64,000 bases of DNA, taken from contig CAUTIE010000003.1 of NCBI GenBank assembly GCA_963538475.1, positions 921 through 64,920 on the forward strand, read 5' to 3'. Within the stretch, counting starts at the first letter, position 1. Every line of letters starts with the position of its first letter. Shown here in pieces: positions 248-63,442 of the stretch. Source of the stretch: an uncultured Atopobiaceae bacterium (lineage in GTDB: Bacteria; Actinomycetota; Coriobacteriia; Coriobacteriales; Atopobiaceae). Both the position numbers and the translations under genes were made by a program. The notes beneath the pieces are model-generated. The model worked only from the letters and a program-made list of their open reading frames with translations, ran no database searches and was not told the DNA's origin.

Positions 248-1774
248 GTGGCTCAGGCTGAGGCATCCGGAGGGGATCCAATGGAACTTCACGAGGAATG
301 TGGCGTCTTTGGAGTATGGGCGCCTGACCGTGACGTTGCTCGACTCACTTATTTTGCGCTGCACGCGCTGCAGCATCGCGGGCAAGATTCCGCAGGTATA
401 GCCGTCGGCGACGGCCAGACCGTGCTTATCAGAAAAGACACGGGCCTCGTAACTGAAGTTTTTAACAACGACGATCTCAACGCAATGCCAGGCAAAGTGG
501 CTATCGGTCACTGCCGCTACGGCACTGCGGGCGCCAAGGGCTGGGAGTCGGCCCAGCCACACATGTCGTCCATCGACGAGACCCTCATTGCTCTGGCTCA
601 CAACGGCACCCTCGTTAACTTTGACTCCTTGCGAGAAGAACTGTCTTCTCGCCAGATTTCCTTTAGATCCAACACGGATTCCGAGGTAGCAGCCCAGCTC
701 ATTGGCTACTTCACGCGTCAAACGCACCGACTGCGCACTGGCATCGCCGCAACCATGAACCTCATCGAGGGCGGCTACGCCATGGTGCTCATCCGCGAGA
801 ACGCGCTGTATGCGTTTAGGGATCCAAACGGCATTCGTCCGCTGGTACTTGGCCATATTGGCGAGGAGGGCGAGAATAACTGGGTGGTTGCATCCGAGAC
901 GTGCGCGCTGGATATTGTGGGCGCCACGTATGTGCGTGAAGTTGCTCCCGGAGAGATTATTCGTATCTCAGACAACGGTCTGTCTTCTGAGATGGGACTT
1001 TCTCCTCGTCAGCAGGCAGATTGTATCTTTGAGCAGGTGTATTTCTCGCGTCCTGACTCTATTATTAGTGGGCGCTCGGTATATTCTGTTCGCCATCAGA
1101 TGGGTCGTCAACTGGCAAAAGAGACTCCAGCCAATGTTGATCTGGTAATCGGTGTGCCAGATTCTGGTGTTCCTGCAGCTGAGGGCTTTGCACAAGAGCT
1201 GGATGTTCCGTTTGGTACCGGTCTGATTAAGAATCGATACGTTGCTCGTACGTTCATTCAGCCTACACAGCAGCTCCGTGAACTGGGAGTTCGCCTAAAA
1301 CTCAACGCACTTTCTGACGTTGTAGCAGGTAAGCGCATTGTAATGGTGGACGATTCCGTTGTTCGCGGTACCACCTCAAAGCAGATTGTTCAGCTGCTTA
1401 GGGATGCTGGCGCTGTTGAGGTGCACGTCAGAAGTGCATCCCCAAAGGTTATCTGGCCTTGCTTCTACGGTATTGATACCGCTGATCAGGACCAGCTTGT
1501 TGCGGCAAAAATGAGCACGCAGGAAATTTGCGATTATATCGGTGCAGACTCTCTTGGCTTCTTGAGCCTGGAAGGTCTGCTTTCATGTGTACCTTCTCGT
1601 GGTTACTGCGATTCCTGCTTTAGCGGCAGATATCCCGTGGCAATCCCTGAAGACTTCCATCAGAGGTTCTTGCCAGAGAACACTCCAGATAATTTGAACC
1701 CAACTTTTGTACGCAAGTTTGACCAGGTAGAACAGCAGTTAATTGACGAGGGTCGTATACCCTCAGAGCAGTAA
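248..1774 (+). CDS. purF: Amidophosphoribosyltransferase
   Basis: LHEECGVFG (Ntn Cys), LQHRGQDSAG, HNGTLVN, PRPP motif VMVDDSVVRGTT, PCFYGID; start may be ATG 281. Confidence 0.98.
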   Translation: MAQAEASGGDPMELHEECGVFGVWAPDRDVARLTYFALHALQHRGQDSAGIAVGDGQTVLIRKDTGLVTEVFNNDDLNAMPGKVAIGHCRYGTAGAKGWESAQPHMSSIDETLIALAHNGTLVNFDSLREELSSRQISFRSNTDSEVAAQLIGYFTRQTHRLRTGIAATMNLIEGGYAMVLIRENALYAFRDPNGIRPLVLGHIGEEGENNWVVASETCALDIVGATYVREVAPGEIIRISDNGLSSEMGLSPRQQADCIFEQVYFSRPDSIISGRSVYSVRHQMGRQLAKETPANVDLVIGVPDSGVPAAEGFAQELDVPFGTGLIKNRYVARTFIQPTQQLRELGVRLKLNALSDVVAGKRIVMVDDSVVRGTTSKQIVQLLRDAGAVEVHVRSASPKVIWPCFYGIDTADQDQLVAAKMSTQEICDYIGADSLGFLSLEGLLSCVPSRGYCDSCFSGRYPVAIPEDFHQRFLPENTPDNLNPTFVRKFDQVEQQLIDEGRIPSEQ

Positions 1775-1785
1775 GGGGAGAAACA

Positions 1786-2874
1786 ATGACCACTTCCGCT
1801 GATCCAACTAAGCAGATTACCTACGCCGATGCAGGCGTTGACGTTGATGAGGGAGCTCGCGCCGTTGACGCCATCAAGGCTGCTGTTGCTACAACTACTC
1901 GTCCCGAGGTCATTGGTGGCCTGGGCGGCTTTGGTTCTTGCTTCTCGGCTGCAGCCCTGAAGGACATGGAAGAGCCTGTACTGGTCAGCGGCACTGACGG
2001 CGTTGGCACCAAGCTGGCCATTGCTCAGCTGCTTAACCGCCATAACACTGTGGGCGAGGACCTGGTTGCAATGTGCGTTGACGACATTGTTCCCATGGGC
2101 GCAGAGCCTCTGTTCTTCCTAGATTACGTAGCCGTGGGCAAGCTTAAAGCCGAGGCAGTCGCAGAGGTTGTTGGTGGCATTGCAGAAGGTTGCCGCAAGA
2201 GCGGATGTGCGCTGGTAGGCGGTGAGATGGCCGAGCATCCAGGCGTTATGAATCCAGATGATTATGATCTGGCTGGTTTTGTTGTAGGCGTTGTCGACAA
2301 ACCAAAGATCTTAGGTCCCGAGAAGGTCAGTGAGGGCGATATCATTCTGGGACTGCCTTCTTCTGGCATCCACTCCAACGGATATTCGCTGGTACGTAAG
2401 GTGGCAATTGAGGGTAAGACCGTTGAGGAACTCAACCAGCCGCTGGAGGAGCTTGACGGAGAGTCCCTTGCAGATGCCGTTTTGCGTCCAACTACCATCT
2501 ATGCAGGTGGACTGCTTGCTGCACTCCGTACGGGAGCTCCTATCAAGGCTATGGCACATATCACTGGTGGTGGAATCACCGAGAACCTTAACCGTGCACT
2601 ACCATCTCATCTTGATGCAGAGGTTGATCGTGGTGGAGAGGCAGGCCCCGCATGGCCAATTCCATCAGTTATTTCTTACGTTTCTAACGCCGCTCATCTC
2701 TCTCTTGATGAGCAGTACCGCACGTTCAATATGGGCGTTGGCATGGCGCTTATTGTTGATATGGACGATGTTGATGATGTTGCAGAGGCCCTCTCTGAAC
2801 AGGGATTTGAGCCATTTGTTATGGGTCAGATTATCCCAGGCACCGGAAAGGTGGTCTACAACGATGCCAATTAA
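1786..2874 (+). CDS. purM: Phosphoribosylformylglycinamidine cyclo-ligase (AIR synthetase)
   Basis: YADAGVD, GTDGVGTK, GAEPLFFLDY, SSGIHSNGYSL, HITGGG, TFNMGVG. Confidence 0.98.
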   Translation: MTTSADPTKQITYADAGVDVDEGARAVDAIKAAVATTTRPEVIGGLGGFGSCFSAAALKDMEEPVLVSGTDGVGTKLAIAQLLNRHNTVGEDLVAMCVDDIVPMGAEPLFFLDYVAVGKLKAEAVAEVVGGIAEGCRKSGCALVGGEMAEHPGVMNPDDYDLAGFVVGVVDKPKILGPEKVSEGDIILGLPSSGIHSNGYSLVRKVAIEGKTVEELNQPLEELDGESLADAVLRPTTIYAGGLLAALRTGAPIKAMAHITGGGITENLNRALPSHLDAEVDRGGEAGPAWPIPSVISYVSNAAHLSLDEQYRTFNMGVGMALIVDMDDVDDVAEALSEQGFEPFVMGQIIPGTGKVVYNDAN

Positions 2875-3478
2875 GCTTGGCGTTCTTCTTTCTGGTTCGG
2901 GTACCAACCTCCAGGCTATTATCGATGCCATCCAGGCTGGTACGTTGGATGCAACTATTGAACTGGTTGTTTCTTCTCGCCCTAGTGCATACGGCTTGAA
3001 AAGGGCAGAGGCGGCTGGCCTGCAAACGCTGACGCTCTCAAAAGAGACATACGAGGATTCGTTTGTTGCGGATATGGTGATTGCTACCGAGCTCAAGCGC
3101 TATAACGTTGATTACGTTGTTATGGCTGGTTACATGCGTAAAGTGGGCGTTCCTATTCTGAACACCTTCCCTGATCGCGTGCTCAACCTGCACCCGGCGC
3201 TGTTGCCAAGCTTCCGCGGCGCGCACGCCATTCAGGATGCGTATGAGTATGGTGTCAAGGTAACGGGCGTTACCGTTCATCTGGCAAACGCTGATTACGA
3301 CCGCGGCCCCATTATTGCCCAGCGACCTGTTGTGGTTGAGGAGGACTGGACCGTTGACCAGCTTGAAGAGGCAATTCACCAGGTAGAGCATCAGCTGTAT
3401 CCTGAGGTGTTGCAGCTTTTTGCACAGGACAGGGTCCACGTTGAGGGCCAAAAGGTTCGCATAGAGGTAGGCAAGTAA
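2864..3478 (+). CDS. purN: Phosphoribosylglycinamide formyltransferase
   Basis: Real start is ATG 2864, overlapping the purM end; SGSGTNLQA, NLHPALLPSFRG, TGVTVH, DRGPII. Confidence 0.97.
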   Translation: MPIKLGVLLSGSGTNLQAIIDAIQAGTLDATIELVVSSRPSAYGLKRAEAAGLQTLTLSKETYEDSFVADMVIATELKRYNVDYVVMAGYMRKVGVPILNTFPDRVLNLHPALLPSFRGAHAIQDAYEYGVKVTGVTVHLANADYDRGPIIAQRPVVVEEDWTVDQLEEAIHQVEHQLYPEVLQLFAQDRVHVEGQKVRIEVGK

Positions 3479-4585
3479 ATGGCGAGAAGTGCCCAGATCA
3501 AACTGAGCGACGTAGCAACGTCGCGTGTCAATAACCTGAACTTTATGAGGTTTATTGCTGCGCTGATGGTCATTGTTTCTCACTGCTACTCAGTGGTCTT
3601 GGGCGGCGATGCTGGCAGCTATTTGCTAAAGCTAACGGGGGATCGTTTGAGTCCCGGCGGTGTTTCCGTTGGCGTCTTCTTCTTATTTGGCGGGTTTTTG
3701 ATTGCTCGTAGTTGCGAGCATTATCCTGAACCAAAGAAGTTCTTCTCGGCACGCGTTTTGAGGCTTTTTCCTGAGCTTTTGTTTGTTGTGATTTTGACTG
3801 CTTTTGTGCTTGGTCCAATACTCTCAACGCTTTCACCTGCAGAATATTTCACAAATCCACAGACGTATAAGTACCTGCTCAATGGCGTCTTAATCATGGT
3901 GCATCAGTTGCCAGGAGTGTTTACCAACAACCCTTCGGGTGACGTGGTAAATGCTGCGTTGTGGACGCTTCCTGTTGAGTTTATCTGCTACATTCTGTGT
4001 TTTATCAGCTACAAACTTACTAAGTTTGACAAAAAGAAGTTTTTGCTGCTCTCGGTACCTGTTTTTGTGTTGGCAGCAGTGTATTACGTGAAGTTTTCTC
4101 CGCTTCAGCTGAGCGTTGTGCGTGCGGTTCTTCTATTTTATCTGGGCGTTTTAATCTGGGTATTTAGAGATCACGTCACTATCTCACCTGTTTTAGGCCT
4201 TGCGTCGATTGTTCTGTGGTTTGTTATGGTCTTTAGTGGCATCGACAATCTGGCAATGCTGACAGTTTTTCCTATTGCTTGCTTCTGCCTTGCGTATGGA
4301 ATGGGCAACCATTTTAGTACGTTTGGCACCAAATTTGAGCTGTCCTATGGCATTTACCTTTGGGCTTTTCCTATTCAGCAAGCACTGGCACAGTATTTCC
4401 CAGCATGGCATCCTTATGTAAATGCACTGGTTGCAGCCTTGCTAGCAACTTGCGGAGCGTTTGTGAATCATTTTGTTGTTACTGCACCGCTTGGAAGATA
4501 CCTCAAAAAGCATCGTCAGAAGGTTCTTGAAAAACAGAAGTCTTCCAAAGGACAGAAACCTTCCGAAGAGCAGTCGGGTGCTTAA
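3479..4585 (+). CDS. Acyltransferase_3 (OafA-like) integral membrane O-acyltransferase
   Basis: RFIAALMVIVSH, VGVFFLFGGFLI, RVLRLFP, LWTLPVE, SYGIYLW; about 10 TM segments. Confidence 0.9.
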   Translation: MARSAQIKLSDVATSRVNNLNFMRFIAALMVIVSHCYSVVLGGDAGSYLLKLTGDRLSPGGVSVGVFFLFGGFLIARSCEHYPEPKKFFSARVLRLFPELLFVVILTAFVLGPILSTLSPAEYFTNPQTYKYLLNGVLIMVHQLPGVFTNNPSGDVVNAALWTLPVEFICYILCFISYKLTKFDKKKFLLLSVPVFVLAAVYYVKFSPLQLSVVRAVLLFYLGVLIWVFRDHVTISPVLGLASIVLWFVMVFSGIDNLAMLTVFPIACFCLAYGMGNHFSTFGTKFELSYGIYLWAFPIQQALAQYFPAWHPYVNALVAALLATCGAFVNHFVVTAPLGRYLKKHRQKVLEKQKSSKGQKPSEEQSGA

Positions 4586-4607
4586 AGACAAGCGCCGAGA
4601 AGAAAAA

Positions 4608-5021
4608 CTATTTTGCCAGGCCCACTAAATAGAATGCAGTTTGCATATACGCAAACGATACAACGCCCCAGATAAGAGGCACAGTTATGTCCCTAATAGT
4701 CTGCAGGGTCTCGTGAGTAGAGTGTTTGGCTATTTGTGTGAAGACGCCACAGATAATAATAAGGACGCCAATGCCCATAAGGGCTGGAACAAGAAATTGC
4801 TGTTTCAGCGCAGCTTCTGTCGTAAGAAACATTATGGCGATAAAAAATGCGATGCCCACAAAGATATAGAAGAGCATGAGCATTCCAAAACGGAGTAGAT
4901 CAAAGTTTGTGTGCTTAAAAACTTTGCTCAAGTCCCTCTTTCCAAGAAGCAGATACACCGTAAAAAAGTAAAAGGCAGTCATAGGAATACAGATAACCTT
5001 ATAGACATCCATAAGTGCCAT
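4608..5021 (-). CDS. Hypothetical membrane protein (4 TM)
   Basis: Hydrophobic 137-aa ORF with RBS-like aaggcgg. Confidence 0.7.
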   Translation of the reverse strand: MALMDVYKVICIPMTAFYFFTVYLLLGKRDLSKVFKHTNFDLLRFGMLMLFYIFVGIAFFIAIMFLTTEAALKQQFLVPALMGIGVLIIICGVFTQIAKHSTHETLQTIRDITVPLIWGVVSFAYMQTAFYLVGLAK

Positions 5022-5066
5022 ATGACCGCCTTATTTACTGAGTTAGCTTGCTGCGTGTTTCTCCGC

Positions 5067-5351
5067 TTATAGTAGTGCGGTTAGCGCAGTAACAAGTCCA
5101 AAGAGAATACCAGGGGCGTTAGCAATCATAATGGGAACATCTCGTTCTTTCTTGAAGGCGCCGTAAACAAACCACACGATGCAGTTGATCATAGCAACCA
5201 GCGGCTGGATAAAACTACCCTTATTTCCAGCAAGGTTATTGGTAATCTGAGGAATATAAGACACATACATCATGACTGATAGTACGCTGCCGATCTGTCC
5301 CATCCTGTTGAAGAAGTTCTCGTCAAACGTAATAGCGCGCTTCTCTGTCAT
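5067..5351 (-). CDS. SemiSWEET / PQ-loop sugar transporter family protein
   Basis: SYIPQI...QPLVAMINC...ANAPG, 3 TM. Confidence 0.9.
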   Translation of the reverse strand: MTEKRAITFDENFFNRMGQIGSVLSVMMYVSYIPQITNNLAGNKGSFIQPLVAMINCIVWFVYGAFKKERDVPIMIANAPGILFGLVTALTALL

Positions 5352-5419
5352 GTAAAGTAACCTCCAATGATTAATTAACGGGTTGCTGGTTCTTACCCAA
5401 TCACTTAAGAAGATATTCG

Positions 5420-5773
5420 TTAGTTTGTTGCCGAATAACTCGCATCAATCCATTGGCAGAGCTCATCAAAGTCAATGGAGCCATCCAAAAGTATGGAAAT
5501 CCAATGCTCTTTATTCATGTGGTACGCAGGCAAATAACCATCTTGATGTAGAAGCATTTCCAGAAGAAATGGATCATCTATTTTTACATTAACAAGATCG
5601 TAGCGTCTGAATTCTTTCAAGCCTAGCTTTTTACCAGGTACATCAGCAACAAGCGCAAACCACTTATTATTGTGCGGGTGGCGTAAAACAGCATACGTTG
5701 GAGCTGTCGAGAAGGGATAGTCGGGGTTTATACCGTACTGATTTGCAATGTAATCAAACAGTTTTTCTCGCAT
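5420..5773 (-). CDS. MmcQ/YjbR family protein
   Basis: KWFALV, NVKIDD, PAYHMNKEHWISI; RBS ggagg before ATG 5773. Confidence 0.9.
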   Translation of the reverse strand: MREKLFDYIANQYGINPDYPFSTAPTYAVLRHPHNNKWFALVADVPGKKLGLKEFRRYDLVNVKIDDPFLLEMLLHQDGYLPAYHMNKEHWISILLDGSIDFDELCQWIDASYSATN

Positions 5774-5922
5774 AATCTTGCCTCCCTGTCCCATATTTTA
5801 TTACGTACAAGATGTCCTTTATTGTGAGTCAGAAATTGCTATTATCCTCAGTATATACGCCTTAAACAGCTATACTAAATGTGTTTGTATATGTAATAAA
5901 AAGTCCAAGTGAAGGGCGTCAT

Positions 5923-6546
5923 ATGAGCCGAGTTTCTCGTAGAGAAGATGAGTTCTACAGCATGTTCTCTGAGTTTTCAGCGTTAATTGTTTCTACGGCA
6001 AAACTCTTTGTCTCCTATATGGAGTCATTCCCAAGTTCAGAAGATTATGAAGTCCAAATCAAGAACTACGAGACACTCTGCGATGACCAGGTAGGAAAGA
6101 TTATTTCCACCCTTAACACGTCTTTTATTACGCCATTTGATCGCGAGGACATCTCGCGTCTTGCTCTGCTTATGGACGAGATTGCAGACGGTATTGAAAG
6201 TGTCTCTGCACACCTCAGTATGTATGACATTAAAGAGATGCGTCCAGAGGCAGTTCAGGTAGCACATCTGATTCTGTTTGCATCGGAGGAGCTGCAAAAG
6301 GCCTTTGATCGTCTCCCTGATTATCACAAGGATGATTCTGTCATTCGCCATACACGCTCTGCAAATGAGTATGAGGACCAGGGTGATGTTGTTTATCGTA
6401 ACGCCCTGAGCTCTATTTTCAGAAACGTTGATGATCCGATTGAGGTTCTTAAGTGGAAGAGCCTTTTGGATAGACTTGAGTCAACCCTTGACGCTTGCAA
6501 GCATGTTGCAAACGCTGTTCAGAATGTCATCGTGAAAAATGGCTAG
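5923..6546 (+). CDS. DUF47 (PhoU-like) phosphate transport regulator
   Basis: FITPFDREDI, E..GD.VYR, D.C..VA; adjacent to pit. Confidence 0.92.
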   Translation: MSRVSRREDEFYSMFSEFSALIVSTAKLFVSYMESFPSSEDYEVQIKNYETLCDDQVGKIISTLNTSFITPFDREDISRLALLMDEIADGIESVSAHLSMYDIKEMRPEAVQVAHLILFASEELQKAFDRLPDYHKDDSVIRHTRSANEYEDQGDVVYRNALSSIFRNVDDPIEVLKWKSLLDRLESTLDACKHVANAVQNVIVKNG

Positions 6547-7534
6547 CATCTTGCTTATTGCGGTACTTGTTTCCGCTTTGATATTTGAGTTCATCAATGG
6601 CTTCCACGACACCGCAAACGCTATTGCAACCACGGTGTATACCAAGGCTTTGCCTCTACGCACAGCAATTATCATGTCGGCTATCATGAACTTTATCGGT
6701 GCACTTATGAGCGAGAAGGTCGCTATGACCATTGCGTCTGGTCTGGTTGATATTCAGCTACAGCTCTACGTTATTTTTGCTGCATTGATGGGCGCTATCA
6801 TTTGGGACCTCTTTACCTGGTGGTTCTCAATTCCAAGTTCGTCTTCGCATGCGCTTATCGGCAGCCTTATTGGCGCAACCATCGTATTTACAGGCAGCAC
6901 GGGCCATATTCTGTGGGCGGGCGTCATCGAGAAGGTTGTTATCCCTCTCTTTACCTCGCCACTTATTGGCATGGCTCTGGGCTACCTCATTATGAAGCTG
7001 GTATTTGAGATCTTTGCTGATTGGCCACCTAAAAAGGCAAACGGTCTCTTCCACCGTCTTCAGGTGCTCTCAGCTGCGTTTATGGCATACAGTCACGGCA
7101 ACAACGATGCTCAGAAGACTATGGGAATCATCACGTTAGCACTGGTAACCGCAGGTCTGCACGATCCTTCCATGGGCATTCCTCTGTGGGTCAAACTGCT
7201 TTGCGCTACAACTATGGCGCTAGGCACCTCCATTGGTGGTGGCCGCATCATGCGTACCGTTGGCGATGGTGTTACTAAGCTCACGCCAGTTATTGGCTTT
7301 GTCGCCGAAACAAGTTCCACCGTTGCAATCGAGATTATGACTGCACTTGGAGCACCAGTTTCCACTACGCAGGTCATCACCACATCCATCATGGGCGCAG
7401 GATCTGCTCGTCGTCGAAGCTCTGTACGCTGGGGCGTTGCGCGCAAGATCATTGCTGCCTGGTTTGTAACGCTGCCAGCCACCATGGCACTTGGCGGACT
7501 TATTGCCTTCCTGACCAGCTTTGTTCTGGCATAA
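6539..7534 (+). CDS. pit: Inorganic phosphate transporter, PiT family
   Basis: NGFHDTANA, PSSSSHALIG, SHGNNDAQK, PVSTTQ. Confidence 0.96.
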   Translation: MASILLIAVLVSALIFEFINGFHDTANAIATTVYTKALPLRTAIIMSAIMNFIGALMSEKVAMTIASGLVDIQLQLYVIFAALMGAIIWDLFTWWFSIPSSSSHALIGSLIGATIVFTGSTGHILWAGVIEKVVIPLFTSPLIGMALGYLIMKLVFEIFADWPPKKANGLFHRLQVLSAAFMAYSHGNNDAQKTMGIITLALVTAGLHDPSMGIPLWVKLLCATTMALGTSIGGGRIMRTVGDGVTKLTPVIGFVAETSSTVAIEIMTALGAPVSTTQVITTSIMGAGSARRRSSVRWGVARKIIAAWFVTLPATMALGGLIAFLTSFVLA

Positions 7535-7537
7535 CCT

Positions 7538-8227
7538 ATGCTCAATGTTGTACTGGTAGAGCCTGAGATTCCTGCAAACACGGGAAACATTGGTCGTACC
7601 TGTGTGGTTAGTGGAACTCATCTGCACTTGGTGGGTCCGTTGGGTTTCTCGCTAGATGACAAAAGCCTCAAGCGAGCAGGAATGGCCTACTGGCAAAGCC
7701 TTAACGTTTCTGTCTACGACAACTGGGATCAATTTCTGGAGAAGAACGGTCTTATCCAAGCATCTGGCGCACCTGCTGGGGACGCTGCACACGACGCTGT
7801 TTCCGCAGTTGGCAGCTCTTCCAACTGCACTTTTACGGTCGGCAGGTCCCCGCTACACTTTCTGACCAAGAAGGCCAAGAAAACCTACACGCAGGCAACG
7901 TATCGCGATGGGGATTACCTCATCTTTGGCAAAGAAAGCCTGGGATTATCCGAGGAACTCCTGGCACAGCATGCTGACGAGTGCGAGAGAATCCCAATGT
8001 TGCAAGATTCTGCCAGCCTGGTCAACCGCGAGGACTGGAGCCAGAAGCACGATGCGCTTGATGGAGATGACCAGTACGCTCATCCAGCGCTTTTGCAGCA
8101 GGATATCTGCGGAAACTTTATCGATCCTAACGAGTTCTCGGTCAGTGCGCTAAACGTTTCAAATGCTGCCGCCATTGTGCTGTATGAGGCGCTGCGACAG
8201 ATTGGCTTTCCGGGAATGGATGTCTAA
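7538..8227 (+). CDS. trmL: tRNA (cytidine/uridine-34-2'-O)-methyltransferase, SPOUT family, with two insertions
   Basis: PEIPANTGNIGRTC, PLGF, KRAG..YW, FGKESLGL, LNVSNAAAIVLYEALRQ. Confidence 0.93.
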   Translation: MLNVVLVEPEIPANTGNIGRTCVVSGTHLHLVGPLGFSLDDKSLKRAGMAYWQSLNVSVYDNWDQFLEKNGLIQASGAPAGDAAHDAVSAVGSSSNCTFTVGRSPLHFLTKKAKKTYTQATYRDGDYLIFGKESLGLSEELLAQHADECERIPMLQDSASLVNREDWSQKHDALDGDDQYAHPALLQQDICGNFIDPNEFSVSALNVSNAAAIVLYEALRQIGFPGMDV

Positions 8228-8309
8228 GAATTAGTTTGTTGAGTTTGTTTATGATGTAGAACGAAAAAAGTGTCAAGAATGGCTACAGAGGTAAGACGTA
8301 TGTTAATTA

Positions 8310-8343
8310 AAATCCGACAACACCATTAGATGCTGTCGGATTT
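8310..8343. terminator. Hairpin between convergent trmL and SemiSWEET genes
   Basis: aaatccgaca...tgtcggattt. Confidence 0.6.
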
Positions 8344-8368
8344 CTAAATTAAATTTGCTGCTTAATCA

Positions 8369-8830: not shown

Positions 8831-8850
8831 AGTTGCATTAGAACTTCCTG

Positions 8851-19384: not shown

Positions 19385-19680
19385 GCCTGAAAAGCGCATC
19401 ATATCTGAGTAAATTTACTCAGATATGGCGAGAAAAACCGGCAAAACCACTCAGACTTGGTGCACTTTTCCGGCAAATCGTTCAGACTTGGCGAGAAAAT
19501 CAGGCTCGATGAAAGCGCCCATGACGCCACACTGGATCCAAAAGTCACGTCACGAAAGGCCCGCCTGAAAAGTGCAAAGAATCTGTATTTGAGCCACCGA
19601 TTCTTTAACAAAACCAGGCAAATCCACAGATTCTTTGATGCTTTTAGGCAAAAGTTACAGATTCTTTGTAGAAATCAGGC
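19385..19680. repeat. Two related ~120-bp multi-repeat elements (19385-19505, 19563-19680)
   Basis: Each starts GCCTGAAAAGYGCA, ends TCAGGC, and has one inverted plus three direct copies of a ~24-bp unit; 28-bp perfect palindrome at 19400-19427. Confidence 0.8.
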
Positions 19681-19865
19681 GCGCTTAGCCCAAGCCTTAC
19701 AGGTCGGTTGCTTTTCCCGAAGAGACGATCTTCTCGCCACGTGCAGCGATCCTCTCGCCACGCGCCACGTGCAGCGTTCTTCTCGCCATGCCGCTCGCCA
19801 TGCCGCTCGCCAAAAACCCTCGTCTCACCTGCAATTTTTGAACAATATTTAAATAAAAATTTCTA

Positions 19866-26925: not shown

Positions 26926-27058
26926 GAACACACCTATGACAGATATTCTGCACAATTGCGGGCATATTACACATCAAATGAAGATAATCTGCACGTTTGA
27001 GGTATTTTCAGCGTAATGTATACGTCTTTATGACAGATTATCTGTCATAGGTGTGTTC
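26926..27058. repeat. 133-bp element with perfect 20-bp terminal inverted repeats (MITE-like)
   Basis: gaacacacctatgacagata ... tatctgtcataggtgtgttc, plus an internal partial copy. Confidence 0.75.
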
Positions 27059-37785: not shown

Positions 37786-37817
37786 AAAGGGCGAGAAGAT
37801 CGATCTTCTCGCCCTTT
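37786..37817. terminator. Bidirectional terminator formed by an inverted pair of the GGCGAGAAGATC motif
   Basis: Perfect 32-bp palindrome aaagggcgagaagatc/gatcttctcgcccttt between convergent genes. Confidence 0.8.
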
Positions 37818-42434: not shown

Positions 42435-42645
42435 AAAGCGGTAATATCCTACCGCATAATTCAGTTTTTTGCGAGTAGGGGATTTAGCAAGTTCGGTTTT
42501 GCTTCATAATTAAGAGCTGACAAACAAGTGTCAGGTTACTGAAGGCTTTGCGTCAGAATGTGAAAGATAAGCGTCAGGTTCGTGACGGATTTGCGACAGA
42601 ACTGCGTAAGATTTGCGACAGCAATTGGACAAGAGAGGAGCAGCT

Positions 42646-43152: not shown

Positions 43153-43166
43153 GAAGTCTGGAAGAA

Positions 43167-45103: not shown

Positions 45104-45175
45104 GATTGTCCTTCTCGCGAGAAGCGCTTACAAAAATGCCAGGCGTCATGTGCGCCTAGCGTCGATGCTCAAAAG

Positions 45176-48715: not shown

Positions 48716-48799
48716 GGCGAGAAGACTGTACCGACCTCCTAATCGTTAGATTTTGGTCTAACTTTTGGGGGTCGGTACAGATCGATCGGTCTTCTCGCC
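48716..48799. repeat. Nested 84-nt stem-loop closed by an inverted GGCGAGAAGAC pair
   Basis: ggcgagaagac/gtcttctcgcc; ctgtaccgacc/ggtcggtacag; gttaga/tctaac. Confidence 0.75.
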
Positions 48800-55276: not shown

Positions 55277-55334
55277 AGTTTGCGCTGGCGAGAAGAACGA
55301 TGCACTTGAACGATCTTCTCGCCAGATGTTGATC

Positions 55335-55685: not shown

Positions 55686-55774
55686 CTTGCTTTCCTTTCA
55701 GGCGCAACTTGTAATGCGACCAAACGTTCTTTTTGCGTGCCACGCGTATCCGCGGCGCGGTGGAGTCCCGGCGT

Positions 55775-57337
55775 TTACAGACCAGGCGCTCTCCACATGC
55801 TCTTGACCTTGCCCTCTTCTGCAAGCTCAAGCTGACTCTTGTAAACATCCTTCCACTGGACATACAGCTGGTCGTAAACAGCCTTGTTGTCGGGGTTAGG
55901 GGAGAATGTCTTATCCCATTTAACAACGCGCTTTGCACCCTCAGCGATGCTTGGGTAGATGCCCACACCGTAGCCTGCAAGAACAGCGGCACCCAGAGCA
56001 GTTGCCTCTTTGACCTCCGGAATGCGAACGTTCTTGCCAGTAACGTCGGCAACAATCTGCGCCCAAAGAGGGCTCTTGGAAGCGCCGCCTGCAAAGATGA
56101 GCTCGTCTGGCTCATTGCCGGTAGCCTCTTTGACCAGGTCAATATGGCCACGGACGAGAAGGGCGGTGTTCTCCAAAATTGCACGATAGAAGGTGTACTT
56201 ATTGAAACGCTCTGGATCAAGTTCAAAGTTGGTGAACGTTGGGCTTGCGTGGGTCCAGTGGATGTAGTTCATAACGTCACTGAAGCAGCAAAGCATACCG
56301 TGGCTACCTGCAGGAATCTCTGCAGCGTGCTCGTTCATGACGTCGTATACATCAATGCCGCGCTCTTTTGCCTCGGCCTTTTCTGCCTGGCAGAAGCCGT
56401 CACGATACCAACGCATAACCAGACCAGGCTTGAATGCTAGGGCCTCGTACTGCCAAACCTGTGGAATAGCGTGGCAGTTTACACGGACGCGATACTCTGG
56501 ATCTGGAGTGCTCTTATCGGTGTTGAACTCGTACTGCCAGAAGCTACCACCAAAAACACCAGCCTGACCAGGCTCGCAAGCGCCAACGCCAATCATGCCC
56601 AGCTGACAATCACCGCCGCCGACAACAACAGGCGTACCCTCGGCAAGGCCCGTCTCTGCTGCGGCGTCTGCAGTTACAGTGCCAAGAACTTCTCCGCACT
56701 CGATAACCTGGCCAAACAGGTCGTCGCGCAGACCGCACTCCTTAGCAATCTCTGGATCCCAGGCGCGTTCTTCCAGGCTCATAATGCCGGTGGTGCTGCC
56801 GTTTGATGGCTCAACTGCCAGAACGCCGGTGAGCTTGTAGGCAAGCCAGTCGTTGAACATGCCAATCTTGGCCGCCTTGTTGTAGATCTCTGGCATCTTG
56901 TTCTTAACCCAAAGAAGACGAGGTAGAGCGCCTAGTGCATAGGTCTGGCCACTCTTCTGGTAAATCTTCTTCTCAAGTTCTGGGTCCATATCAATGAGCT
57001 GCTTGACCTCGTCAACGCTTCGAGCGTCAACGTTAGCGCACGCCCAAATCTCGTTGCCGTCCTGGTCATACAGGAGGATGCCCTCGCGCATGCAGGTGGT
57101 GGAAATACCAGCGATTTCTTTAGGATCAATGGAGGTCTTTGCTAAAACCTCTTTGATGCAGTCCAGAGCAAGCTGCCAGTCAGCAACCCAATCAAAGTCC
57201 ATGCTGCCAGGCCAACGAGGGTCCTCGTGGTGCTCCCACTCGCGCTGAGCAACCCCAACCTGCTCACCGTCAACACTAAAGAGAACGGCGCGAATACTTC
57301 CTGTTCCCGCGTCTAGTGCAAGAAGATACTTGCTCAT
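55775..57337 (-). CDS. lsrK: Autoinducer-2 kinase
   Basis: LALDAGTGSIRAV, PGSMDFD, MREG, WACANVDAR, EPSN..TTG, GGGDCQLG, GGSFWQ, WRAPGL. Confidence 0.95.
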   Translation of the reverse strand: MSKYLLALDAGTGSIRAVLFSVDGEQVGVAQREWEHHEDPRWPGSMDFDWVADWQLALDCIKEVLAKTSIDPKEIAGISTTCMREGILLYDQDGNEIWACANVDARSVDEVKQLIDMDPELEKKIYQKSGQTYALGALPRLLWVKNKMPEIYNKAAKIGMFNDWLAYKLTGVLAVEPSNGSTTGIMSLEERAWDPEIAKECGLRDDLFGQVIECGEVLGTVTADAAAETGLAEGTPVVVGGGDCQLGMIGVGACEPGQAGVFGGSFWQYEFNTDKSTPDPEYRVRVNCHAIPQVWQYEALAFKPGLVMRWYRDGFCQAEKAEAKERGIDVYDVMNEHAAEIPAGSHGMLCCFSDVMNYIHWTHASPTFTNFELDPERFNKYTFYRAILENTALLVRGHIDLVKEATGNEPDELIFAGGASKSPLWAQIVADVTGKNVRIPEVKEATALGAAVLAGYGVGIYPSIAEGAKRVVKWDKTFSPNPDNKAVYDQLYVQWKDVYKSQLELAEEGKVKSMWRAPGL

Positions 57338-57351
57338 CAGATCCTCCTTGT

Positions 57352-58266
57352 TTACGAAAGAAGCAGCTCAGCAGCGGTGTCTGAATCCGTGATGAGCACG
57401 TTCAGATAGCCGCCGTTAAGCACTGCTTTAATTGCCGTAACTTTATCTTTGCCACCAGCAACGCCAACAACGTTCTTGAGCTGGCGAAGCTTGTCCAGAT
57501 CGGTGCTAATGACGCGATCTTCAATTTCTGTCTGAATAAGATTGCCGTCTTTATCCATAAAGTGATTGAGGACGTCGCCGACAGCTCCCTGCATCTTAAG
57601 CACGGTCAGCTCGCCCTCGTTAAGGATGCCGTTGCGCAAAACGGTAGCGCCCTCAACTGCGGCGCCGATGCCGACCACACTCATGTCTGCATATTCCGTC
57701 ATAGTGGACACGTCTTGCAGGCTTTTCTCGTCAAGAAGCGCATCGCGCACTTGGCGAGAAGACACAACAAGTGGAGACGGTGTCAGGAACAGGTGCATGG
57801 AGTAGGCAGTGGTGCCAACGGATGGCAGGTAGTAGCTCACGCCGCCCGTAAGGCTTACAACGTTGAGCGACTCCTCACGGTTCTTGGCAAGAAATCCCAA
57901 CATACGACTGACGGTATCGCCGTAGCCAATGTTGAGGTAGCCGTCCTCGCGCAGGTGATCGGAGACGTAGTGAGCTGCGCCCTGAGCAATAGATTGATTA
58001 ATGGCAGAGCTGTCCAGGGGAGTTGGGACCACAAAAGCGTCCTTGAGGCCAAAGCGGTCAATAAGGAGTTGTTCTGCGGAAACGCGCTGGCTATCGTTTT
58101 TTCTGAAGCTGAACTGAACAATGCCCTGCGCGCGAGCCTCTTCAAGCAGACGGATAACTTTTGCACGAGAAACGCCCATGACCTCAGCAATCTGAGCCTG
58201 GGTGTTATCTTCCATGTAGTAATACCACGCAGCCTTGGTGGCTAGTGCATATGTTTGTTCGTCCAT
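57352..58266 (-). CDS. lsrR: SorC/LsrR family transcriptional repressor
   Basis: AWYYY..D.TQ.QIA..MG.SR.KV, IGYGDT, SLTGG, VGIGA, VAGG..K, LITD; next to lsrK. Confidence 0.9.
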   Translation of the reverse strand: MDEQTYALATKAAWYYYMEDNTQAQIAEVMGVSRAKVIRLLEEARAQGIVQFSFRKNDSQRVSAEQLLIDRFGLKDAFVVPTPLDSSAINQSIAQGAAHYVSDHLREDGYLNIGYGDTVSRMLGFLAKNREESLNVVSLTGGVSYYLPSVGTTAYSMHLFLTPSPLVVSSRQVRDALLDEKSLQDVSTMTEYADMSVVGIGAAVEGATVLRNGILNEGELTVLKMQGAVGDVLNHFMDKDGNLIQTEIEDRVISTDLDKLRQLKNVVGVAGGKDKVTAIKAVLNGGYLNVLITDSDTAAELLLS

Positions 58267-58279
58267 CCGTCCTCCAGTT

Positions 58280-58312
58280 GATACTTTTGTTTAATAATAA
58301 AACATTTGTATC
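58280..58312. promoter_or_regulatory. Candidate LsrR operator
   Basis: GATAC-ttt-TGTTT-N7-AAACA-ttt-GTATC symmetric palindrome just upstream of lsrR. Confidence 0.55.
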
Positions 58313-58549
58313 TAACATACTAGACTTCATTATAGTAATTATTCTCCCTATTAACAGGAAGATATACTACAAATACCATAATTGCGTATAGAGGTATTGC
58401 GGACTATTGTTCATAATACAATCAAAAATACCATTCACGGCAGTAATAATACCGTTTGCCGTGACGGTGCTTTGAAGAATGCCTATTTATATATATCTTC
58501 AAAGTGTGAGATTTTGTACGGCCGTTTGTTATTTTTGGTAGGAGGTACT

Positions 58550-60103
58550 ATGGGTGAAACTTTTGACATCGATATCGATGCCACTGACCCAAAGTCGCCT
58601 GAAGGAAAAGATGTGTGCGAGCAGTGCGACACACTTCTTTCCGTCCGCGGAATCAAGAAGTCATTTGGTTCCAACGAGGTATTAAAAGGCATTAACTTAG
58701 ATTTGGCGCCAGGAGAGGTCATCTCTCTTATTGGTGGCAACGGTTCCGGTAAATCTACCCTCATGAAGATCATCATGGGTATTTACTCTGCCGATGAGGG
58801 AGAAATTTCTATCGATCGTCAAAAGGTTGATATCTCCAACCCTAAGGCCGCACTTGCGCACAGTATTTATATGGTTCCTCAGGAGCCAATGCTGTTCCCT
58901 AACATGACCGTTAGAGAAAACATCACCATTGGCTTTGAGGCCCCAAAAGCCGAGCTCAACAAGATGCTCGAAGATACTATGAAAGAGATTGGCTGGGAGC
59001 TTGACCTGGACCGCAAGGCAATGACGCTTTCCATTGCTGAGCAGGGTATGGTTGAGATTCTCCGCGGTCTTATGCGCCACTCCGAGATTCTTATTCTGGA
59101 CGAGCCAACTTCTGCACTTACCTTTGACGAGGTACAGAGCCTCTTCAAGGTAGTCCAGGAGCTCAAGCAGAAAAACATTGGCATCATCTACATTACCCAC
59201 CGACTGGCAGAGGTCTTTGAGATTTCTACCAGCATTGGCATTCTGCGCGACGGCGTTATGGCCATGCGTGGCAAGGTAGAGGACTTCACGCGAGAAGATC
59301 TTGTACGCGGACTTCTTCCACCAGACGCAGCAGAGATTAAGAAAGAAATTGCCGAGAGCGCAAACATTGATTACGACGCAGAGCCTATTTTTGAACTTGC
59401 TGAGTTCACCGGCTATGGCTTTGCTGACGTAAACCTCAACATTTATCCAGGCGAGATTGTTGGTCTTGCAGGTATCGTTGGTGCCGGTAGATCAGAGATG
59501 GCTACCACCATTTACGGTATGGATAAGGTGTTGGGCGGCAAGGTATTTGTTGACGGCAAAGACATCACCGGCAAGTCCACCAAAGACGTCATTGCTGCAG
59601 GTCTGAGCTATGTCCCAGAGGACCGCTTTAACGACGGTCTGTTTAGAATTCGTGACGTTGCCGAGAACACCACAAGCTCTCTGCTTGCTAACTCTTCTCT
59701 TGGTAAGTTGCTGCTTAACCGCAAAGAAGAAGATAGAGTTTCTCAGAACTACGTTGATAACTTCCGTACCAAGGTCACTGGCCTTGATCAAGAGGTAGGC
59801 GGCCTCTCTGGTGGTAACCAGCAGAAGATTGTTATTGGCCGCGCATTCTCGGTTGCTCCAAAGGTTGTTATTTTGGACGAGCCAACCCGTGGTATTGACG
59901 CTGCTGCTCGCGGCGATGTGTACGCCGTTTTGCAGGAGCTTCGTAAGCAAGGTGTTTCTATTCTTCTGATTTCTTCTGATATGGAAGAGATTATTGAGCT
60001 TGCTGATCGCGCGTTCACCATGTACCAGGGACGCATTAATCACGAGTTCAAAAAAGAAGAAATTACGCAGGACAACCTCATGTCCGCTGCATTTGGATTG
60101 TAG
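58550..60103 (+). CDS. lsrA: AI-2 ABC transporter ATP-binding protein
   Basis: GGNGSGKST, VPQEP, LDEPT x2, LSGGNQQK; RBS aggagg before ATG 58550. Confidence 0.92.
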   Translation: MGETFDIDIDATDPKSPEGKDVCEQCDTLLSVRGIKKSFGSNEVLKGINLDLAPGEVISLIGGNGSGKSTLMKIIMGIYSADEGEISIDRQKVDISNPKAALAHSIYMVPQEPMLFPNMTVRENITIGFEAPKAELNKMLEDTMKEIGWELDLDRKAMTLSIAEQGMVEILRGLMRHSEILILDEPTSALTFDEVQSLFKVVQELKQKNIGIIYITHRLAEVFEISTSIGILRDGVMAMRGKVEDFTREDLVRGLLPPDAAEIKKEIAESANIDYDAEPIFELAEFTGYGFADVNLNIYPGEIVGLAGIVGAGRSEMATTIYGMDKVLGGKVFVDGKDITGKSTKDVIAAGLSYVPEDRFNDGLFRIRDVAENTTSSLLANSSLGKLLLNRKEEDRVSQNYVDNFRTKVTGLDQEVGGLSGGNQQKIVIGRAFSVAPKVVILDEPTRGIDAAARGDVYAVLQELRKQGVSILLISSDMEEIIELADRAFTMYQGRINHEFKKEEITQDNLMSAAFGL

Positions 60104-60113
60104 GAGGTGACGT

Positions 60114-61190
60114 ATGGATCTTGTAAAGCGCCTTCTCAAGGCTAGGGGACTGAGCAGCCTCGCATTCCTGATTGCTCTCTTTATTATTGTTGGTGCAATG
60201 AATCCTGCATTCTTGACGCCAGCAACAATTGCTGCCTGCTTTAACACGTCCGTTGTCTACACATTGGTCGCTGTTGGCGTGGCTTTCACCCTGTTCATTG
60301 GTGAGATTGACGTTTCTGTTGGTTCCAACCTGGGTCTTGTTGCTGTGGTAGTGGGCAGCATGCTGAGAGATGGAACTCCACTTCCTGTTGCTTGCCTGGT
60401 AGGTATTCTTATTGGTGTAGCAATTGGCTTGGTAAACGCCTGGGGCGTTGCCGTTATGAAGGCTCCATCGCTCATCTTTACTCTGGGTACCAACGGTGTT
60501 CTGCGCGGTATCGTTTACGTGTACACCAATGGTCAGTGGGTTGAGAACCTCCCTAAGGAGTTCAAGGACTTCTCGGCAGTAACTGGTATTGGTGACTTCA
60601 CGGTGTACTATTGCGCAGTTATTGCACTGGTTATCTTGATTCACTTTGCACTGACCCAGACCCGTCGTGGTCGCTGGTTTGCAGCAGTTGGCGATAACGC
60701 TAACGGTGCAACCCTGGTTGGTATTCCAGCTCTTCAAACCAAGATTCTGGCATACGTCATCTGCGGCGTTATGGCAGCTATCGGCGGTATCATCTTCTGC
60801 AGCCGTATTGGCTTTGTTACTCCAATGAGCGGTAACGGCTACGAGATGAAGGCTATTGCAGCTTGCGTTCTTGGTGGCGTTAGCCTGCTTGGTGGCGTTG
60901 GCTCCGTCCTTGGTGCAGCTGTCGGTTCCGTCATCATGGCATCCATCAGCTACCTGTTGGTCTTCATGGGCTTCTCGTCAAATTACGACAACGCAATTAC
61001 CGGCGTCATTCTGATTGTCATTGTTGTTGTGGACGCCCTGCTTCAGCACCGCTCCATTGTTCAGAACAGGCATGCTCGTCTGAACGCACGCGTTTCTCCA
61101 AAGGCAACTTCTGAGATTCTTGCAGAGCAGATTGCAGACTTTGGTGAAGCTGCAATGAGCCCTTTGGGTAAGAAGGGCGGTGTTCGCTAA
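60114..61190 (+). CDS. lsrC: AI-2 ABC transporter permease
   Basis: EIDVSVGS, GQWVENLP, AVGDN..GA, EMKAIAACVLGGVSL.GG.G. Confidence 0.9.
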   Translation: MDLVKRLLKARGLSSLAFLIALFIIVGAMNPAFLTPATIAACFNTSVVYTLVAVGVAFTLFIGEIDVSVGSNLGLVAVVVGSMLRDGTPLPVACLVGILIGVAIGLVNAWGVAVMKAPSLIFTLGTNGVLRGIVYVYTNGQWVENLPKEFKDFSAVTGIGDFTVYYCAVIALVILIHFALTQTRRGRWFAAVGDNANGATLVGIPALQTKILAYVICGVMAAIGGIIFCSRIGFVTPMSGNGYEMKAIAACVLGGVSLLGGVGSVLGAAVGSVIMASISYLLVFMGFSSNYDNAITGVILIVIVVVDALLQHRSIVQNRHARLNARVSPKATSEILAEQIADFGEAAMSPLGKKGGVR

Positions 61191-62224
61191 TGATGAAGAC
61201 GCTTAAGGGATTCTTGTCCAAGGGTCAGACAAGCTGGAACATGATCCTCATCGGTCTGCTTGTGCTTGAGTTTGTGATTTTTGGTGCTGCAAACGGCAAG
61301 TTCTTGCGTCCAGCACTACTGTTTACCAGCATTAACGATAACCTGCCAGTCTTCATGATCTCGCTCTTTGTAACGCTTGTTATGGTTACCGGCGGCATCG
61401 ACATTCAGGTTGCTTCCCTGGTTGGCCTCACATCCATCACCATTGGCGTTGGCTGGCAGGACTTTGGTCTTCCTATCTGGGGCGCCGTGGGTGTTGCCTT
61501 TGTCCTGGTTGTTGCTTGCGGTGCACTTTCGGGCTTCTTGATTGCGTACTGTCGAGTGCAAGCAATGGTTGTTACCCTGGGTGGTAGCTTCTTGTACTCC
61601 GGTTTGGCGCTGCTCATCTCAACGCTTTCCAAGACTGAGAGCTACCAGGGAATTGGCGGTTTCCCCGAGGACTTCAAGTTTGTCTCTAACTTCCAGCTCT
61701 TTGGTGTTATTCCATTCCAGCTTCTTATTTACATCCTGATGTTGGTCATTGCATTCATTCTGCTGCACAAGACCAAGTATGGTCGCCGCGTTACCCTGGT
61801 TGGTGTTAACCAGAGTGCAGCTGAGTTCTCTGGTATCAACAGCCGAGCAGTCATCATGTCCACCTACATGCTCACTGCAGTCTCCGCAGTTATTGCAGGC
61901 GTGGTTCTGACCGCTTACCTGGGTACCGCTAAGTCCGATCTTGGCGCTGACCTCACCATGGACATCATCACCGCAGTTGTTTTGGGCGGCACGCTCTCCA
62001 CTGGTGGTAAGGGCTCCATTGTTGGCACCGCACTTGCATCGTTTGTTATTGCATTTTTGCGCTTCGGCTTGCCATTGTGCTTCAAGGTAAGCCCACAGTA
62101 CCTGGATATTCCTGTTGGTGTCCTGCTGGTTGTTGTCATCGTTGCTCGATCGGCAGCAAGCGGAACAAATATCGGTACGTTTTTGAAATCGCTGCTTTCA
62201 AGCAGCAGTAAAGCCAAGGCATAA
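61190..62224 (+). CDS. lsrD: AI-2 ABC transporter permease
   Basis: GGIDI, VTLGG..LY.G.AL, YQGIGGFP, ITAVVLGG. Confidence 0.9.
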   Translation: MMKTLKGFLSKGQTSWNMILIGLLVLEFVIFGAANGKFLRPALLFTSINDNLPVFMISLFVTLVMVTGGIDIQVASLVGLTSITIGVGWQDFGLPIWGAVGVAFVLVVACGALSGFLIAYCRVQAMVVTLGGSFLYSGLALLISTLSKTESYQGIGGFPEDFKFVSNFQLFGVIPFQLLIYILMLVIAFILLHKTKYGRRVTLVGVNQSAAEFSGINSRAVIMSTYMLTAVSAVIAGVVLTAYLGTAKSDLGADLTMDIITAVVLGGTLSTGGKGSIVGTALASFVIAFLRFGLPLCFKVSPQYLDIPVGVLLVVVIVARSAASGTNIGTFLKSLLSSSSKAKA

Positions 62225-62269
62225 GCTTTGGGGAAATTGTGCCTTAGGCACAGACAAGGGAGGTTACCT

Positions 62270-63394
62270 ATGCAAGAGATTACTCGTCGTGGTTTTATTG
62301 GTGCCGCTGGTATCACCGCAGTTAGCGCTGGCCTCGCTCTGGCAGGCTGCAATAATGGTGGTGGCGAGAAGAAGGAAGAGACCAAGAAGTCCGAGGGTGG
62401 CGGAGACGTCAAGGGCAAGACCGTAGCATTTATTCCTAAGGTCACCGGCAACGCATTCTTCGAGTCCGCAAACAAGGGCGCACAGGATAAGTCCAAGGAG
62501 TGGGGCTTCACCGTTGACTACATCGGCGACGCAACCGCATCTGTTTCCGCTCAGGTTTCCGTCATCAACCAGGCAGTTGCTAACGGTGTAGACGCAATCA
62601 GCATCTCTACCGTTGATGCAAAGGGCGTTTCCGACGCACTGAAGAAGGCAACTGCTGCTGGTATCGTAGTTACCACTTGGGACTCTGACGCTAACCCAGA
62701 GGATCGTACCCTCATGGTTTCTCAGGGTACCCCAGAGATCCTTGGCCAGATGCTTGTTGACATGGGTGTTGCTGGCCTCAAGGAGCGCGGCAAGGACCCA
62801 GAGAAGGACGAGATCACCTATGTCTGGCACTACTCCCAGGCAACCGTTACCGACCAGAACTCCTGGCAGGTAGCTGCACAGAAGATCATCAAGGAGAAGT
62901 ATCCTAAGTGGAAGAACGTCCACGAGAACTACTACTCCAATCAGGACGCAGAGCAGGCAATCACCATTGGTGAGGCAATCCTTGACGCTTACCCAGAGAT
63001 TGACCTGATCATCTGCAACGACTCCACCGCTCTTCCTGGCCAGCTCCAGGCTGCAGAGAACAAGGGCTACGACGCAAAGAAGATCACCATCACCGGTTTT
63101 GCTTCTCCACAGTCCATCAAGTCCTACTGCGAGCACGGCACCATCTACAACTGGGGCCTCTGGGACTGCGCAGTTCAGGGCGCTATGGGCTGCTACGTTG
63201 CAGCATTCCTCGCAGCTGGTAACGAGGTCAAGGTTGGCGACACCATCTCCATCCCAAGCATTGGCGATGTCAAGGTTGAGGCTAACGACTCCATCTCCGA
63301 GGGTGCAAAGACTGGCGAGAAGAACAACGGCGTTGTCCTGCTTCCTGAGCGCCTTGTCTTCACCAAGGAGAACATGAACAACTACTCCTTCTAA
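62270..63394 (+). CDS. lsrB: AI-2 binding lipoprotein with twin-arginine-like signal
   Basis: ITRRGF...LAGC; FIPK, TWDSD, QGTP..LG..LVDM, TVTDQNSW, GLWD, VLLPER..FTKEN. Confidence 0.92.
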   Translation: MQEITRRGFIGAAGITAVSAGLALAGCNNGGGEKKEETKKSEGGGDVKGKTVAFIPKVTGNAFFESANKGAQDKSKEWGFTVDYIGDATASVSAQVSVINQAVANGVDAISISTVDAKGVSDALKKATAAGIVVTTWDSDANPEDRTLMVSQGTPEILGQMLVDMGVAGLKERGKDPEKDEITYVWHYSQATVTDQNSWQVAAQKIIKEKYPKWKNVHENYYSNQDAEQAITIGEAILDAYPEIDLIICNDSTALPGQLQAAENKGYDAKKITITGFASPQSIKSYCEHGTIYNWGLWDCAVQGAMGCYVAAFLAAGNEVKVGDTISIPSIGDVKVEANDSISEGAKTGEKNNGVVLLPERLVFTKENMNNYSF

Positions 63395-63412
63395 TCAAGG
63401 CGTAAGTTCACG

Positions 63413-63442
63413 GCTGGCGAGAAGACCGATCTTCTCGCCAGC
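63413..63442. repeat. Hairpin of an inverted TGGCGAGAAGA pair after lsrB
   Basis: gctggcgagaaga-ccga-tcttctcgccagc. Confidence 0.8.

Follow-up and report, generated by a model that had tools for sequence, protein, structure and literature searches.

A requirement for an uptake sequence has been called unique to Neisseria and Pasteurellaceae, in an account that also describes eight dialects and inverted pairs (PMC3630211), and uptake motifs occur in hundreds to thousands of copies per genome, with pairs at terminators (PMC12616744). The USS (uptake signal sequence) arises by point mutation, is scarce in new DNA and in constrained genes, has an inner core and is rather evenly spaced under molecular drive (PMC7811141); the tripeptides that it encodes are doubled, and its sites fall at poorly conserved residues (PMC2817400). 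Sequence-specific binding by a pilin has been placed in diderms (PMC12378983), and Tad-dependent transformation has been described in the actinobacterium Micrococcus luteus (PMC6916266). Here we describe a short word dispersed over the genome of an uncultured Atopobiaceae bacterium (order Coriobacteriales), as found in a 64,000-nucleotide stretch of its DNA (assembly GCA_963538475.1, contig CAUTIE010000003.1, positions 921 to 64,920), which as a whole we call the window. The word is a real, conserved and apparently undescribed genome-wide signal with dialects in several Coriobacteriales lineages; we found no description of it in the literature searched, whose coverage mostly excludes subscription journals.

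The bacteria that carry the DNA uptake sequence (DUS) live on host mucosa, a habitat common to them and to this host-associated lineage. Like the DUS of Neisseriaceae, the word is present in about 2,000 copies per genome, on both strands, in coding and intergenic DNA, as inverted pairs at terminators and with lineage dialects (PMC3630211). Unlike the DUS, it is shorter and more degenerate with a spaced last base, and its host is a monoderm in which we found only a Tad pilus and identified no ComP-like receptor. It shares with the USS of Pasteurellaceae a strict inner core with weaker flanks, an origin by point mutation, at least two versions, scarcity in newly acquired DNA and conserved genes, raised motif-coded tripeptides and a rather even spacing (PMC7811141, PMC2817400), but the AT-rich flanking tracts of the USS are not seen, the sequence is unrelated, and the word occurs patchily in several families, where the USS marks a single one.

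Form and abundance of the motif

From flank profiles and single-substitution profiles we derived the unit tgg-CGAGAA-r-n-n-C, which is non-palindromic, with a strict inner AGAA and last C and with graded flanks. The core CGAGAAnnnC is found 1,958 times in the 1.49-Mb, 48% GC genome (972 and 986 copies on the two strands), a mean density of one copy per 760 bases. Of roughly 2,680 copies of the hexamer CGAGAA, 73% have C at the tenth position; T, G and G ahead of the core reach 55, 58 and 53%, respectively. GGCGAGAA is the most frequent 8-mer of the genome (722 copies), the most frequent form genome-wide is CGAGAAACCC (189 copies), and intergenic DNA favours TGG-CGAGAA-A(A/C)n-C. In places, for example on contig C27 of this genome (G000), the motif has been amplified into tandem arrays of three to five 12-base units.

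A preliminary description of the window had listed GGCGAGAA at 21 positions on the forward and 14 on the reverse strand, where about two were expected. All 35 positions are exact, and 100 dinucleotide shuffles yield 2.29 copies on average and 8 at most. The 16 copies said to be intergenic are a fair count, as gene calls give 17 of 35, one of which (3481) overlaps a possible start codon. However, the core copies in the window number 96 and not 35 (Table 1), and the proposed consensus TGGCGAGAAGAHCG was wrong: the C four bases past the hexamer is near-obligatory (30 of the 35 copies), and the base following AA is A as often as G. Likewise, the AT-rich MFS, ECF and 54317 genes do lack the 8-mer, as had been stated, but each carries one core copy (31598, 49410 and 54500).

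Enrichment over codon-aware expectations

For the codon-aware analysis we used 1,269 genes called by a self-trained model on the genome, which is 97% complete. Coding copies of the core, which make up 80% of the total (1,569 of about 1,950), exceed by 4.2-fold the 370 +/- 19 copies obtained when synonymous codons are shuffled within genes, and this excess is present in each of the six frames (2.0- to 14-fold), with three control words at 0.89-1.31 in the same shuffle. Roughly half of the coding copies (769 of 1,569) lie in the Glu-Lys/Asn frame. A null that preserves amino-acid pairs gives 27 copies in a 140-kb sample in which 159 are observed, and between genes the core is found 382 times against 21 expected (18-fold). 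The enrichment thus persists under both the synonymous and the amino-acid-pair null, a check that the preliminary description had called for, and its claim of copies in several coding frames extends to all six.

Conservation and origin of the sites

We compared the genome with the one-contig relative G131 over 323 kb of alignment (88% identical, 435 sites). At synonymous core positions 98 of 1,026 bases have changed against 332 expected, which is 0.29 of the background rate, and the inner AGAA is nearly fixed between the two genomes. Four control words in the same alignment evolve at 0.91-1.06, and two near-variants of the motif are partly held (0.68 and 0.51). The two genomes have 335 sites in common, with 105 and 52 private to one or the other, and the flanks of the copies are unique. 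These private and common sites, together with the unique flanks and the low rate, show the same origin by point mutation without insertion that characterizes DUS and USS.

Next, we examined the effect on proteins in 122 orthologues (42.8 thousand aligned residues) compared with five motif-poor genomes. The tripeptide GEK is raised (18 vs 6); the dipeptides FS and SR are not. Residues coded by the motif are slightly less conserved than their residue type (362 of 617 vs 390 expected), and so are their neighbours (1,131 of 1,914 vs 1,232); the sites fall in variable protein stretches. Furthermore, the ribosomal-protein cluster is 2.4-fold over the null compared with 4.2-fold genome-wide, and the most conserved orthologues have 1.13 motif codons per 100 residues compared with 1.6-1.7. 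The word is set by point mutation wherever the protein code permits, is held between species and varies between lineages.

Recombination in this lineage was gauged in 14 purF-purM alleles. Four-gamete conflicts affect 37% of site pairs less than 50 bases apart and 44-49% of pairs beyond, partly because repeated mutation at a diversity of 0.099 adds to them, and r-squared falls from 0.19 to 0.13-0.15, which is near linkage equilibrium.

Distribution along the chromosome

No replichore polarity was found, neither in G131, where 21 stretches of 20 kb (420 kb in all) contain 240 copies on the leading and 233 on the lagging strand, nor in the skew-oriented contigs of this genome (827 leading, 765 lagging). 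The strong sites (262:257) and the intergenic sites (158:165) are as balanced, and there is no origin-to-terminus gradient. The strand-bias check proposed in the preliminary description thus does not reveal the sign of Chi or KOPS. Density is highest in convergent gaps (2.9 per kb), followed by tandem gaps (1.7), divergent gaps and genes (1.2 each); across the genome no position is favoured in promoters or in genes, where the profile is flat. Spacing is slightly more even than random: the coefficient of variation of the gaps is 0.977 over all contigs (1.01 +/- 0.02 expected) and 0.927 (1.006 +/- 0.025) when three site-poor, foreign-looking stretches are excluded and hairpin pairs merged, and in this filtered set pairs at distances of 80-600 bases are 10-17% too few, and pairs at 40-80 bases are in excess.

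The motif is scarce in recently acquired DNA. A 30-kb prophage with normal GC has 7 sites where the genome rate gives 40, and its genes hold 6 coding sites against 5.0 by shuffling, that is, no excess; a restriction island has 3 sites against 12. This bears out the depletion in foreign DNA that had been suggested and, together with the low density in strongly constrained genes, matches DUS and USS. The prophage (contig C1, about 117400-148000) is apparently complete and siphovirus-like. Viral contigs gave 62 stretches with a paired pattern; these never exceeded 1.1 core copies per kb, their host-like proteins did not surpass 37% identity, and the outcome is uninformative.

The gene-end hairpins noted in the preliminary description are all present, and the four that we folded have z scores of -4.9 to -8.7 (Table 1). 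Genome-wide, inverted pairs occupy 17 of 114 convergent, 20 of 588 tandem and 2 of 134 divergent gaps, so that paired sites at terminators are a feature in common with DUS and USS. The copy at 632 in purF is retained in 13 of the 16 alleles that cover the position.

Table 1. Motif copies and related features (positions in the window unless a contig is given)
Feature	Position	Strand	Context and remarks
Core CGAGAAnnnC, 96 dispersed copies	632..63437	both	coding and intergenic
Inverted pair	631..653		within purF; full core copy at 632, copy without the last C at 646
Four intergenic copies	19427..19787	19427+, 19490+, 19731-, 19780-	two on each side of a small repeat rich in hairpins
Perfect inverted pair, hairpin with T-runs on each side	37786..37817		between convergent genes; bidirectional terminator-like; z -4.9 and -7.3
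Two overlapping copies in opposite orientation	45108..45127		upstream of the rlmI-type gene
Inverted pair that closes a long hairpin	48716..48799		left copy without the last C; z -8.7
Inverted pair, hairpin	55285..55325		between convergent genes; z -4.9
Inverted pair, hairpin	63413..63442		directly past the lsrB-like gene; z -6.8
TadG-like pilin gene	L063:4553-6691 = C1 60553-62691	-	single copy, mostly, in 150 of 151 genomes
11-base-period arrays	42530-42640	+	
11-base-period arrays	C1 near 68990	-	
11-base-period arrays	C32 near 200-370	+	
11-base-period arrays	C32 near 2230	-	
11-base-period arrays	C28 near 2770	+	

Range and dialects in the Coriobacteriales

The range of the motif was followed by an index, the ratio of CGAGAAnnnC to CGAGAAnnnG, which was computed for 43 of the 151 genomes with whole-genome counts. 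It is 8.2-13.3 in all 11 indexed genomes of the genus, 5.9-7.5 in genus g19, 4.8-5.4 in g18 and 2.6-3.8 in g21 and g22, and reaches 5.9 (G049), 4.6 (G032) and 3.8 (G042) in other families. By contrast, it is 1.1-1.7 in genera g20 and g23 of the same family and 1.2 in two genomes of family f3. Codon-aware tests on 100-180 kb samples from 15 genomes agree with the index: the motif is enriched in G108 (230 observed vs 109 expected) and G032 (162 vs 64), in small excess in G031 (95 vs 67) and G036 (73 vs 56), and not enriched in G051 (95 vs 96) and G155 (95 vs 87). In high-GC relatives much of the raw motif count is codon-driven.

Furthermore, the word varies by lineage. G094 and G049 favour TGC before the CGAGAA core. 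In G053 one core base is swapped, with 1,522 copies of CGATAAnnnC against 116 with G in the last place and 275 of CGAGAAnnnC, a dialect defined from counts over the whole genome plus some 20 kb of sequence, and its flanks are poorly defined; a weaker CGATAA form is present in G030, G041, G042 and G033 (ratios 4.6, 3.9, 4.4 and 2.6). GGCGAGAAnnnC occurs 1,157 times in one record named 'uncultured Atopobiaceae bacterium' and 85-116 times in four others, two of them named Collinsella. Lineage dialects of this kind are also found in DUS and USS. Nor is the signal limited to a single lineage, as the preliminary description had supposed: with its dialects it spans several families of the order.

Two observations were made in motif-poor genomes. 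In genus g20 (G051 and G163) another word, TGnCGGnA, is enriched and often forms the palindrome TGCCGGCA; it was sampled in loci L188-L194, L071 and L097, and in G051 it occurs 293 times in genes (141 expected) and 25 times between genes (8.9 expected). It is perhaps a distant dialect. G110 has a strong deficit: CGAGAAnnnC is present only 27 times, the reversed control 384 times.

Competence genes and search for a receptor

In this genome comEA (250 aa) and comEC (808 aa) adjoin and are intact, dprA lies 3′ of a gene that we take to be comM-like, and the tad operon is complete and intact, encoding Flp, three TadE-like and one 713-aa TadG-like pilin. The com and pilin genes that the preliminary description had proposed to look for are hence in place, a Tad ATPase included. 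The machinery expected from DUS and USS bacteria is present but not specific to motif carriers, because it is near-universal in the order. The regions upstream of comEA and of the tad operon are more alike than are other upstream regions (combined p 6e-4 over 17 related genomes, which as kin are not independent; p at most 0.1 in 6 of 17), which hints at a joint control of the two.

The TadG-like pilin, which we considered as a receptor, carries a 200-residue inserted domain with an invariant His and three Cys, resembling a zinc site, and with invariant Arg/Tyr. Its model is confident (tip pLDDT 93), and comparison with Pfam and PDB sequences and by Foldseek and VIA-align (best Z 4.8) gave no match, an outcome that says nothing for or against DNA binding. 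One Atlas cluster without a name matches at 0.79, and none was found on plasmids.

Direct-repeat arrays with an 11-base period and a GTCAGA-like unit precede the tRNA deaminase gene, the tad operon, comEA, rpsF-ssb, nagB and others (Table 1). The unit varies between lineages, and the arrays look like sites of a winged-helix regulator. As a competence-specific pointer to a receptor we rejected them, since they also precede the nagB, tRNA deaminase and alcohol dehydrogenase genes. A HATPase and winged-helix gene (C43:1193-2071, forward strand) lies between rpmH and dnaA among the origin boxes. It was discarded as a reader of the motif: 30 of 34 genomes contain it, whether they are rich or poor in the motif, and the query used did not find it in the motif-rich G049; mIHF was likewise set aside, as by eye it is alike in motif-rich and motif-poor genomes.

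Weighing a proposed DNA-uptake sequence

The genomic tests put forward in the preliminary description all come out in the direction of an uptake sequence, and its interpretation is supported in part. We judge it somewhat probable that the motif is a DNA-uptake sequence built up by biased transformation. Under this reading, tgg-CGAGAA-r-n-n-C would be the site favoured by a sequence-specific protein of the DNA-uptake pathway, which may be a component of the Tad pilus, ComEA or ComEC. Fragments that bear the motif would be taken up and recombined more often; molecular drive would then load the core genome with roughly one site for every 760 bases, leave recent arrivals empty and recruit inverted pairs as terminator stems. 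In lineages without the word, uptake would be unbiased or rarely used. The motif has the six genomic features of DUS and USS that were examined; it resembles an uptake sequence on paper, and we do not file it as one. A genomic pattern by itself does not prove uptake.

Several results speak against uptake. ComEC is found in 148 and the TadG-like pilin in 150 of the 151 genomes, including those where the motif is not enriched, so that their presence does not explain its patchiness. By eye, no clear residue pattern tracks the motif in ComEA, in the stretch of ComEC viewed or in the small Tad proteins of about 20 genomes; in TadG of such a set three columns part the motif groups imperfectly and the tip domain is acidic. 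Within this genome comEA and recA are without any copy, and the tad operon has 5 in 9.6 kb. The tadG-like gene of G131 (C1:1160664-1162799) has one in-frame stop, and yet the motif is fully kept there (index 13.3). The core fixes only 7 bases, and a chance copy thus falls in about every 8 kb of foreign DNA, which makes for a weak filter. Finally, there is no report of competence in these bacteria in the literature searched, again with subscription journals mostly outside its coverage.

Alternative explanations

The most serious alternative, which we regard as possible but rather unlikely, is a cytoplasmic protein that binds in either orientation at sites all over the chromosome, either one that organises the nucleoid or one whose action in repair or recombination favours site-bearing alleles, with protein and word drifting together into dialects. 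It would account equally well for the constraint, the absent polarity and the dialects, and it does not need the competence genes to track the motif, which indeed they do not. Against it, the candidate readers mIHF, domain IV of DnaA and the winged-helix protein encoded next to dnaA are by eye alike in motif-rich and motif-poor genomes, a regional or promoter preference is not seen, a 30-kb prophage is carried with its 7 sites, and entire lineages within the family get by without the word. What is left after these two readings is, all other explanations together, a small share.

Cyanobacterial HIP1 resembles the motif in its thousands of copies in any frame, its lack of polarity and its absence from some lineages, and its short, asymmetric core with a single spaced base is reminiscent of some restriction-modification sites. 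A methyltransferase site that methyl-directed repair has multiplied would be a parallel, and the genome does have N6, N6/N4 and C5 methyltransferases. Unlike HIP1, however, the motif is not a palindrome and has graded flanks, which together with the partly conserved near-matches fit a binding affinity and not an all-or-none methyltransferase site. Moreover, among 41 genus genomes the N6 enzyme is present in 8, but every genus genome counted has the motif; the D12 family is in 2 of 21 and not in this genome, the Eco57I family is represented by dissimilar proteins in 13 of 21, and the N6/N4 gene lies within a motif-poor, low-GC island. No genus-universal or conserved methyltransferase was thus found among the N6, D12 and Eco57I families searched, the N6/N4 and C5 genes having been searched in this genome only, and we consider this explanation improbable. 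Variant DnaA boxes spread along the chromosome are more improbable still: the word matches six of the nine positions of the boxes around dnaA, but it differs at positions fixed in those boxes and needs the spaced C, the origin boxes read TGT(T/A/C)GA(A/T)AA whether a genome is rich or poor in the motif, CGAAAAnnnC as the form that would match them shows no enrichment (77 vs 59 with G), and DnaA domain IV does not track the motif. A second, weak Bac_DnaA_C match was rejected as not a real gene. A polar signal of the Chi, KOPS or SRS kind would suit a short, asymmetric, purine-rich and abundant word, and has hardly any credence left, being refuted by the lack of polarity in both genomes (240:233 and 827:765). 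Least credible of all is a codon or codon-pair artefact or an inserted repeat of the REP type. The Glu-Lys/Asn share of the coding copies and the largely codon-driven raw counts of high-GC relatives would favour the former, which is refuted for this genus by the six-frame excess, the 18-fold enrichment between genes and the pair-preserving null. The REP-like signal considered in the preliminary description is unsupported, as most copies are coding, their flanks are unique and no RAYT/Y1 transposase (PF01797) match was found in the 97% complete genome.

Other features of the window

A small, non-coding, hairpin-rich repeat at about 19560-19690 contains CAAAGAATCTGT, has 45 copies of its 12-mer on 11 contigs, and is possibly a miniature transposon. 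A family of palindromes of about 50 bases (43 copies of its 12-mer) and a second repeat family containing AACACACCTA (35 copies), which sometimes adjoins the palindrome, are represented near 26927 and 27048; copies also lie on contigs C2, C6, C13, C21, C41 and others. An lsr-like autoinducer-2 uptake cluster occupies 55775-63394, with lsrK, lsrR and lsrACDB as best matches, below or near the cut-offs.

Implications

If the motif is a DNA-uptake sequence, it would be the third such family and the first in a monoderm within reach of the literature searched. A fuller version of this reading, which we put forward tentatively as it falls short of being probable, is that of a third, independent family in the monoderm Coriobacteriales, with a Tad-pilus machine and an undescribed receptor, in which at least three dialects would act as fences to gene flow among oral, vaginal and gut lineages, and the motif-free sisters would represent the state before or after specificity. 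Should the cytoplasmic protein be the reader instead, the motif would reveal a previously undescribed chromosome-wide protein with about 2,000 conserved sites. As an uptake sequence it would mean that self-specific uptake arose a further time on another filament, the Tad pilus of a monoderm, and the word would be a simple handle for the genetics of bacteria that are hard to manipulate. With sister lineages that have a strong, a weak, an altered or no signal and the same competence genes, molecular drive versus selection becomes testable by comparison.

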